Sequence record: MZ375240.1
Length of the DNA: 38,831 nucleotides
Strand: one strand, 5' to 3'
DNA from: Escherichia phage T7
In this document: positions 1-38,831 of the stretch, piece after piece
How the letters are laid out: each line of letters starts with the position of its first letter
How positions within the stretch are numbered: the stretch's first letter is position 1
Notes under the pieces: model-generated
What the model was told of the DNA's origin: nothing
The model's database searches: none
What the model saw: the letters and a program-made list of their open reading frames with translations, nothing else
Position numbers and translations under genes: made by a program

Positions 1-160
1 TCTCACAGTGTACGGACCTAAAGTTCCCCCATAGGGGGTACCTAAAGCCCAGCCAATCACCTAAAGTCAACCTTCGGTTGACCTTGAGGGTTCCCTAAGG
101 GTTGGGGATGACCCTTGGGTTTGTCTTTGGGTGTTACCTTGAGTGTCTCTCTGTGTCCCT
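1..160. repeat. Left 160-bp direct terminal repeat (terminal redundancy of mature T7 DNA)
   Basis: Bases 1-160 are repeated identically at 38672-38831; the sequence begins TCTCACAGTGTACGGACC, the known T7 left end. Confidence 0.97.
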
Positions 161-1278: not shown

Positions 1279-1409
1279 TGTCTACTACCAACGTGCAATA
1301 CGGTCTGACCGCTCAAACTGTACTTTTCTATAGCGACATGGGGCGGCGTGGCATAGACGAAAGGAAAAGGTTAAAGCCAAGAAACTCGCCGCACTTGAAC
1401 AGGCACTAG
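1278..1409 (+). pseudogene. 0.4: Gene 0.4 remnant: first 21 codons of gp0.4 (FtsZ inhibitor) fused to 22 codons from the distal gene 0.6 region
   Basis: ATG at 1278 overlaps the ocr stop as in T7; reading frame [21 protein letters not shown] then GRRGIDERKRLKPRNSPHLNRH, stop TAG 1407-1409; genes 0.5 and 0.6 are not present. Confidence 0.6.
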
Positions 1410-7447: not shown

Positions 7448-8029
7448 TGGGACTGTTAGATGGTGAAGCCTGGGAAAAAGAAAACCCGCCAGTACAAGCA
7501 ACTGGGTGTATAGCTTGCTTAGAGAAAGATGACCGTTATCCACACACCTGTAACAAAGGAGCTAACGATATGACCGAACGTGAACAAGAGATGATCATTA
7601 AGTTGATAGACAATAATGAAGGTCGCCCAGATGATTTGAATGGCTGCGGTATTCTCTGCTCCAATGTCCCTTGCCACCTCTGCCCCGCAAATAACGATCA
7701 AAAGATAACCTTAGGTGAAATCCGAGCGATGGACCCACGTAAACCACATCTGAATAAACCTGAGGTAACTCCTACAGATGACCAGCCTTCCGCTGAGACA
7801 ATCGAAGGTGTCACTAAGCCTTCCCACTACATGCTGTTTGACGACATTGAGGCTATCGAAGTGATTGCTCGTTCAATGACCGTTGAGCAGTTCAAGGGAT
7901 ACTGCTTCGGTAACATCTTAAAGTACAGACTACGTGCTGGTAAGAAGTCAGAGTTAGCGTACTTAGAGAAAGACCTAGCGAAAGCAGACTTCTATAAAGA
8001 ACTCTTTGAGAAACATAAGGATAAATGTT

Positions 8030-12627: not shown

Positions 12628-12666
12628 ACACCAAATTCTTTGAGTAATCAAACAGGAGAAACCATT

Positions 12667-38294: not shown

Positions 38295-38317
38295 TAATAC
38301 GACTCACTATAGGGAGA
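38295..38317 (+). promoter_or_regulatory. T7 promoter phiOR (right-end replication promoter)
   Basis: TAATACGACTCACTATAGGGAGA, exact consensus. Confidence 0.95.
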
Positions 38318-38471
38318 GGAGGGACGAAAGGTTACTATATAGATACTGAATGAATACTTATAGAGTGCATAAAGTATGCATAATGGTGTACCTAGAGTGA
38401 CCTCTAAGAATGGTGATTATATTGTATTAGTATCACCTTAACTTAAGGACCAACATAAAGGGAGGAGACTC

Positions 38472-38519
38472 ATGTTCCGCTTATTGTTGAACCTACTGCG
38501 GCATAGAGTCAAGTCCTAA
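38472..38519 (+). pseudogene. 19.5: Gene 19.5 truncated to 15 codons
   Basis: ATG at 38472 after agggaggagactc RBS; MFRLLLNLLRHRVKS then stop, whereas the gene encodes about 49 aa in reference T7. Confidence 0.7.
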
Positions 38520-38671
38520 GGTATACCCATAAAGAGCCTCTAATGGTCTATCCTAAGGTCTATACCTAAAGATAGGCCATCCTATCAGTGTCACCTAAAG
38601 AGGGTCTTAGAGAGGGCCTATGGAGTTCCTATAGGGTCCTTTAAAATATACCATAAAAATCTGAGTGACTA
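38520..38671. repeat. Right-end array of short CCTAAAG / CCTAAGG-type repeats (SRR)
   Basis: cctaagg and cctaaag motifs recur immediately left of the right terminal repeat. Confidence 0.75.
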
Positions 38672-38831
38672 TCTCACAGTGTACGGACCTAAAGTTCCCC
38701 CATAGGGGGTACCTAAAGCCCAGCCAATCACCTAAAGTCAACCTTCGGTTGACCTTGAGGGTTCCCTAAGGGTTGGGGATGACCCTTGGGTTTGTCTTTG
38801 GGTGTTACCTTGAGTGTCTCTCTGTGTCCCT
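38672..38831. repeat. Right 160-bp direct terminal repeat
   Basis: Identical to bases 1-160. Confidence 0.97.

Follow-up and report, generated by a model that had tools for sequence, protein, structure and literature searches.

A repeat-mediated 189-bp deletion in gene 19.5 of a phage T7 clone very probably from a Cas9 genome-reduction series also removes a probable M-hairpin region

The DNA analyzed here (the window, 38,831 bp in full) is a derivative of phage T7, whose reference sequence V01146 is 39,937 bp long. At its right end, which shares 100% identity with phage T7, the late promoter phiOR (TAATACGACTCACTATAGGGAGA, 38295-38317, plus strand) is intact, and by the reference annotation its start site at window 38312 corresponds to reference 39229 (offset 917). 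Further along the same strand are the ribosome-binding site of gene 19.5 (GGAGG, 38461-38465), which is retained and is the same as the reference in the alignment, and a remnant of gene 19.5 itself (MFRLLLNLLRHRVKS, 38472-38519). The right-end short-repeat region (38512-38671, plus strand) is 100% identical to reference 39618-39777. The right copy of the 160 bp terminal repeat (38672-38831, plus strand) closes the genome; it is identical to window 1-160 and was matched by BLAST to reference 1-160.

Wild-type gp19.5 consists of 49 residues. In the window the gene keeps its ATG at 38472, and after 13 native codons the frame reads K, S, and a stop codon (38517-38519). A truncation that spares the start and the ribosome-binding site had been proposed in a preliminary description of this DNA, and translation returned the 15-codon remnant given there, made up of the 13 native codons and 2 new ones. 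The Pfam DUF5465 match of the wild-type protein (residues 31-49) is gone from this 15-residue product; gp19.5 also matches phrog_2193. Likewise lost is the membrane segment predicted for the protein by Heineman et al. (2009). In PMC2680503, gp19.5 is presented as a small protein of unassigned function and as a candidate secondary holin. In total, gene 19.5 lost its codons 11/14-49, 70 bp past the stop codon were removed as well, and the short-repeat region was moved 189 bp nearer phiOR, in line with the earlier statement that the right end had been brought closer to this promoter. The 70 bp non-coding loss, with the conserved inverted repeat that it holds, was absent from that description.

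Pairwise alignment with V01146, which had been suggested as a check, produced a single clean gap of exactly 189 columns with both flanks 100% identical, and thus bears out the deletion size first estimated from the sequence. Both reported values of the offset between window and reference were reproduced by BLAST: it is 917 for the match that ends at window 38511 and 1106 for the next, which begins at window 38503, so the two overlap by 9 bp. The same nine positions (38503-38511, plus strand) hold the sole copy of ATAGAGTCA in the window (n = 1), which was identified as the deletion junction by alignment, BLAST and repeat counts. In the reference, ATAGAGTCA was found only twice when either strand was counted, at 39420-39428 and 39609-39617, both on the plus strand, so that the two copies which the preliminary description had given for it do exist and one of them remains here. 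Their spacing is 189 bp, the deleted length, and no bases were inserted; the loss can be written as reference 39420-39608 or, equivalently, 39429-39617. The bases next to the two copies are unlike on either side (GGC-ATAGAGTCA-CCT versus CCT-ATAGAGTCA-AGT), and the microhomology is therefore exactly 9 bp. The upstream copy occupies codons 11-14 of gene 19.5, and the downstream copy directly follows the conserved inverted repeat.

By itself, such a pair of 9-mers is unremarkable in a region of this size; two copies of ATAGAGTCA were reached in 4 of 100 shuffled sequences. End points placed exactly on such a pair have a random expectation of about 4^-9. Moreover, of the exact direct repeats in the interval from the end of gene 19 to the terminal repeat, the ATAGAGTCA pair is the longest to bracket gene 19.5, and the other 9-mer repeats of this interval were found only within the short-repeat array, at distances of 29 and 37 bp. 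The evidence supports a 189-bp deletion that was repeat-mediated and not engineered, and ATAGAGTCA is a predictable deletion hot spot when the right end of T7 is engineered.

The genome very probably belongs to the Cas9-driven reduction series (CiPGr) of Yuan et al. (2022), and the clone is most likely T7_40S (transfer 40, small plaque), the name that the naming pattern along the accession run MZ375233-MZ375293 gives for MZ375240. In that study, T7 went through 300 transfers on E. coli MG1655 with Cas9 and a pooled cassette library, in which each cassette carried a spacer and two 50-bp arms in a whole-gene deletion design, and large (L) and small (S) plaques were sampled every 10 transfers (Yuan et al., 2022, NAR 50:13183, PMC9825161). 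The authors described the loss of a gp19.5 fragment as undesigned and probably a CRISPR escape, and saw it in population sequencing too; the main text reports this loss without its end points, the 9-bp repeat, the hairpin or a link to small plaques (PMC9825161). The preliminary description had called the deletion spontaneous and repeat-mediated. The second term stands, but the first tells half the story, as the loss was undesigned yet belongs to a Cas9 genome-reduction series and is probably a CRISPR escape.

BLAST over the whole length against V01146 returned five collinear blocks separated by four deletions, which total 1,106 bp, the difference between 39,937 and 38,831. Besides the loss at gene 19.5, these are a 563-bp deletion in genes 0.4-0.6 (from reference 1341/1353 to 1903/1915, with an imperfect junction overlap of 12 bp), a 156-bp deletion of the gene 1.4 coding sequence (reference 7608-7763 exactly, no overlap), and a 198-bp deletion within gene 4.3 (from reference 13350/13353 to 13547/13550, with a 3-bp overlap, CCA). 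Since the gene 1.4 deletion is coding-sequence-exact and has no overlap, it reads as a cassette product and is the signature of a designed edit. A contrast between the gene 19.5 event and those in genes 1.4 and 4.3 had been drawn in the preliminary description; it holds for gene 1.4, but is less clear for gene 4.3, where 198 bp and part of the coding sequence are lost with a 3-bp overlap. The gene 4.3 deletion fits a designed label less clearly than that of gene 1.4 and is not clearly repeat-mediated either. Unlike gene 1.4, the other undesigned deletions of the series lie between repeats of 9-13 bp.

Several details of these other junctions were also recorded. The 563-bp junction lies at window 1341-1352 on imperfect 12-bp repeats in genes 0.4-0.6, and the apparent SNPs at reference 1342, 1346 and 1347 mean that the right-hand repeat copy was retained. 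Removal of gene 1.4 is scarless (window 7044/7045) and was seen in all sister clones that were examined at or after transfer 30. The gene 4.3 deletion (window 12631-12633) begins at the ATG, spares the last 15 bp and is shared with T7_60S.

The presence of a clearly designed edit in the same genome, running from the start codon to the stop codon of gene 1.4, would favor deliberate engineering of the gene 19.5 region as well, by cassette edit or by cloning. However, a whole-gene design would take out reference 39389-39538, and the end points observed ignore the gene boundaries (one in codon 11-14, the other 70 bp beyond the stop) and fall on a natural 9-bp repeat. Furthermore, the loss of gp19.5 is stated to be undesigned by the authors (PMC9825161). 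With end points that lie off the gene boundaries and on a natural repeat, a designed CiPGr whole-gene deletion was rejected, and engineering in any deliberate form is regarded as highly improbable.

The distribution of the deletion was examined with a 45-mer across the junction, designed such that an undeleted genome would give it no seed for a match. This probe matched 41 of 50,697 phage records, all of them within MZ375238-MZ375292 and titled 'Mutant Escherichia phage T7 clone T7_nS/L'; among these 50,697 records the junction was found in none outside the clone series. The full stretch is kept in 19 sister clones, and among the 60 sequenced clones no gene 19.5 allele other than the 189-bp deletion occurs. 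It is absent in 10L, 10S, 20L and 20S, appears first in 30S, and is present in every clone of MZ375266-292. At least three left-end backgrounds carry it, with deletions of 1480 bp (30S), 563 bp (the window) and 676 bp (50S and 60S), which means recurrence or recombination. These left-end deletions all lie on repeats as well, of 12 bp for the 563-bp, 9 bp for the 676-bp and 13 bp for the 1,480-bp deletion.

The deleted non-coding part contains an imperfect inverted repeat (reference 39568-39586/39590-39608), whose right arm ends directly before the second copy of ATAGAGTCA. Folded as single-stranded DNA it has a predicted stability of -7.2 kcal/mol, compared with a shuffle mean of -3.1 (z = -2.8). 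Conservation of the deleted stretch extends over Teseptimavirus, Teetrevirus and Przondovirus, with 72-76% nucleotide identity in the latter two genera. When six genomes were aligned, the strongest non-coding conservation was at T7 39592-39618 (CACACCACTTCATCCCTATAGAGTCAAG), a block that comprises the right arm and the second repeat copy. In IMG/VR, a pattern scan located the CACACCACTTCATCCCTATAGAGTCAAG block at 71 loci, which form three sequence classes. Between the T7 and T3 classes 15 of 15 stem pairs are kept, four of them via changes on both sides (compensatory), a covariation that was counted on two lineages only and is modest evidence, although each difference in the stem is balanced by its partner. 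No compensatory pairs appeared in a control in which the partners were slid by 1-3 columns. RNAalifold on all three phage classes gave invariant pairs only, owing to an apical stem of different build in the Przondovirus class.

T7 uses a structure known as the M-hairpin in concatemer processing. The inverted repeat at 39568-39608 is most likely this M-hairpin, an assignment based on its position adjoining gene 19.5, as given in PMC2680503, and on the description reportedly provided by Chung et al. (1990). According to PMC2680503, the M-hairpin is non-essential, and its loss together with gene 19.5 leads to small plaques and late lysis (Kim and Chung, 1996; Kim, Kim and Chung, 1997). Loss of the hairpin may outweigh loss of gp19.5 for the phenotype. 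As a separate observation, the hairpin right arm and the second repeat copy read CTTGACTC-TATAGGGATG on the minus strand, which resembles positions -9 to +5 of the T7 promoter with two bases missing. Nine bp of this block are perfectly complementary to phiOR (reference 39604-39612 versus 39224-39232). The phiOR copy at window 38307-38315 is the sole one kept of this complementary pair; the block is conserved in the three genera.

Plaque size was found to be associated with the deletion. Among transfers 30-170 it is carried by 14 of 15 S clones versus 2 of 15 L clones (Fisher p = 2e-5), where the undeleted clones were identified by name (30L-80L, 100L, 100S, 110L, 130L-170L) and the deleted ones by elimination, most names of the latter being inferred from accession order and perhaps imperfect at the late end. 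One length disagrees with the published record, as T7_300L is given as 36,937 bp in PMC9825161, at odds with MZ375291. The association indirectly fits the published small-plaque phenotype and suggests that the early-transfer S class was largely set by the 189-bp deletion. The small-plaque class thus largely coincides with this deletion and does not follow how many genes were lost by design, which is useful to anyone interpreting phenotypes of these published clones; beyond annotation it carries little weight.

These data also bear on the chance that the junction is an assembly or sequencing artefact produced by repeat collapse. Short repeats can in principle mislead assemblers, with no specific support for this here. 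However, a 9-bp repeat is far below read length, the junction was recovered in 41 independently assembled clones beside the 19 sisters with the full stretch, the deletion tracks the plaque phenotype, and fragment loss was seen in population sequencing too (PMC9825161). An artefact was rejected on these grounds, its probability being vanishingly small.

Clones in which the stretch survives have changed in another way. From transfer 30 on there are 15 such sister clones, and each of them has one or more substitutions at paired hairpin positions. Five alleles were distinguished: 39606 C>A in 30L; 39572 A>G, 39590 A>T and 39592 C>G in 40L; 39590 A>T and 39592 C>G in 50L; 39596 C>T in 70L; and 39591 T>C in 60L, 80L, 100L, 100S, 100L.2, 110L and 130L-170L. 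No hairpin substitutions were present in 10L and 20L. The six substituted positions are all paired, and every allele makes the predicted fold less stable, at -3.9 to -4.9 kcal/mol instead of -7.2. These alleles were found in records of this study only and are absent from the other evolved T7 series in the collection. No mutations inside gene 19.5 were found in the clones keeping it.

Two readings of the point mutations were considered, escape from Cas9 and selection against the hairpin itself. For the first, a minus-strand protospacer at 39599-39618 places 39596 in its PAM (39596-98) and 39606 at seed position 8, and the 189-bp deletion would remove the PAM and seed of this protospacer. Moreover, 39590T and 39592G together convert ATCACA to TTGACA at the place where the right arm of a cassette would end; in a whole-gene 19.5 cassette this arm would end at 39588/39589. 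TTGACA is presumably the start of the J23119 promoter, which we expect to follow the 50-bp right arm in the cassette. From its sequence, the double substitution looks like a possible gene-conversion scar from a cassette, which would point to nearby breaks. Against escape, positions 39590-39592 lie outside every NGG protospacer. A single Cas9 protospacer for all of the hairpin mutations was considered and rejected, given that 39599-39618 covers 39596 and 39606 but not 39590-39592, and that no NGG site does.

Taken together, it is highly likely that the window represents a laboratory T7 clone (most probably T7_40S) in which an undesigned, repeat-mediated 189-bp deletion removed gp19.5 and the hairpin and was fixed in the Cas9-library host. 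The loss would have arisen by recombination or slippage between the sole two copies of ATAGAGTCA in the T7 genome, either through replication slippage or through a double-strand break followed by resection and annealing of the repeats. Each route would leave one copy and no scar, and the sequence product would be the same. The event destroys gp19.5 and takes out the whole hairpin; since phiOR is spared along with the short-repeat region and the terminal repeat, the phage is viable. The deletion phage would form small plaques on a naive host, and fixation in the library host may have come about through escape from Cas9 cutting at the gene 19.5 region, a step less certain than the rest. The provenance of the series places the origin of the deletion under Cas9 targeting of the phage, and about 22 NGG protospacers overlap the deleted stretch, so that the loss may readily have taken out a targeted protospacer or its PAM. 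Fixation in the Cas9-library host despite a cost on the naive host is also the behavior expected of an escape mutation. The deletion thus appears to have been selected, and possibly break-stimulated, rather than neutral. Counting against selection by Cas9 escape, gene 19.5 is unmutated in the clones that keep it, which would be odd if the gene were cut effectively.

A doubtful alternative is pure slippage without Cas9, in which the deletion would have spread through loss or weakening of the hairpin, through the benefit of a shorter genome under serial transfer in E. coli K-12, or by hitch-hiking. Deletions of T7 between short repeats are classic in nuclease-free settings, and the substitution of a paired position with lowered stability in every undeleted clone of transfers 30-170 looks like selection against the structure; the unmutated state of gene 19.5 where the stretch is kept would fit this as well. 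However, plaques of the deletion phage would be small on a naive host, and yet the deletion was fixed in the Cas9-library host, and both it and the hairpin alleles are limited to one study and missing from the other evolved T7 series in the collection. Conservation of the hairpin in nature means, moreover, that its loss is not generally advantageous. An undesigned and selected deletion in a Cas9 genome-reduction lineage, which also removes the conserved probable M-hairpin region, is the form in which the finding is supported.

On the other side of the terminal repeat, additional mutations were noted. Window 161 A>C alters the first base after the left terminal repeat, which is the first base of ATCTGTT. 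We take ATCTGTT to be the class II signal at which T7 RNA polymerase pauses in the concatemer junction. Alleles at positions 161-164 comprise 161C in 34 records, 162 T>C in 20 and 164 T>G in one; none of them occurs in 20L, and they are confined to records of this study. By their sequence context they could alternatively be read as Cas9 escape, as a minus-strand protospacer at 161-180 (PAM CCT, 158-160) would have 161, 162 and 164 as positions 1, 2 and 4 of its seed. Furthermore, Gln184 of T7 RNA polymerase is replaced by Arg through an A>G change in gene 1 (window 3158, reference 3721), which most clones from transfer 30 on carry together with the pause-signal mutations. Gln184 is presumably close to the 172-180 region, nicking or deletion of which we understand to abolish recognition of the class II pause.

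At least five independent hairpin point alleles, the 189-bp deletion and three pause-signal alleles all arose between transfers 20 and 30. A tentative idea, which we hold to be rather improbable, is that the neighborhood of the concatemer junction, with ATCTGTT just right of the terminal repeat and the hairpin some 170-210 bp to its left, came under intense parallel selection because of its function and not as an off-design Cas9 target. Weaker concatemer-processing signals would then be adaptive in some conditions, with the 189-bp deletion as the extreme allele. If true, this would provide a genetic handle on the role of the conserved hairpin block, and the parallel hairpin and pause-signal mutations are of possible use to researchers of T7 DNA maturation.

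Deletions between short direct repeats in T7 were reportedly described by Studier et al. in 1979 and by Kong and Masker in 1994, both of which PMC5630979 cites. The present event resembles these classic cases in that one copy is kept and the deleted length matches the spacing of a repeat of some 9-13 bp. The classic studies mostly concerned the early (left) region or test constructs, whereas the event described here lies at the right end and its stimulation by Cas9 breaks is a possible reading. A close known counterpart is a mutant which, according to PMC2680503, likewise lacks gene 19.5 and the adjacent hairpin region and is viable (Kim and Chung, 1996, Virology 216:20; Kim, Kim and Chung, 1997, Virology 236:37). 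Small plaques are the phenotype of that mutant as described in PMC2680503, and here the deletion is associated with S clones, whose names are partly inferred. Unlike the 1996 mutant, the window originates from Cas9 selection and also lacks genes 0.4-0.6, 1.4 and 4.3. The loss of a 'large fragment' of gp19.5 reported by Yuan et al. (2022) is very probably the same event in the same clone series (PMC9825161), and the end points, the 9-bp repeat, the hairpin and the small-plaque link are added here to what its main text gives. As publications exist both on gene 19.5 and the M-hairpin being dispensable (1996/1997) and on the fragment loss (2022), the finding as such is already known. The exact 9-bp junction, the association with S plaques, and the parallel hairpin and pause-signal mutations are mildly new.

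Two minor observations concern the left end of the genome. Window 405 (reference 405) carries A>G at the annotated start of the phiOL promoter, a change common to T7_30L and T7_50S. From MZ375257 onward, the sequence after the left terminal repeat lies 18-29 bp nearer the genome end, and the terminal repeat was thus shortened during the experiment.
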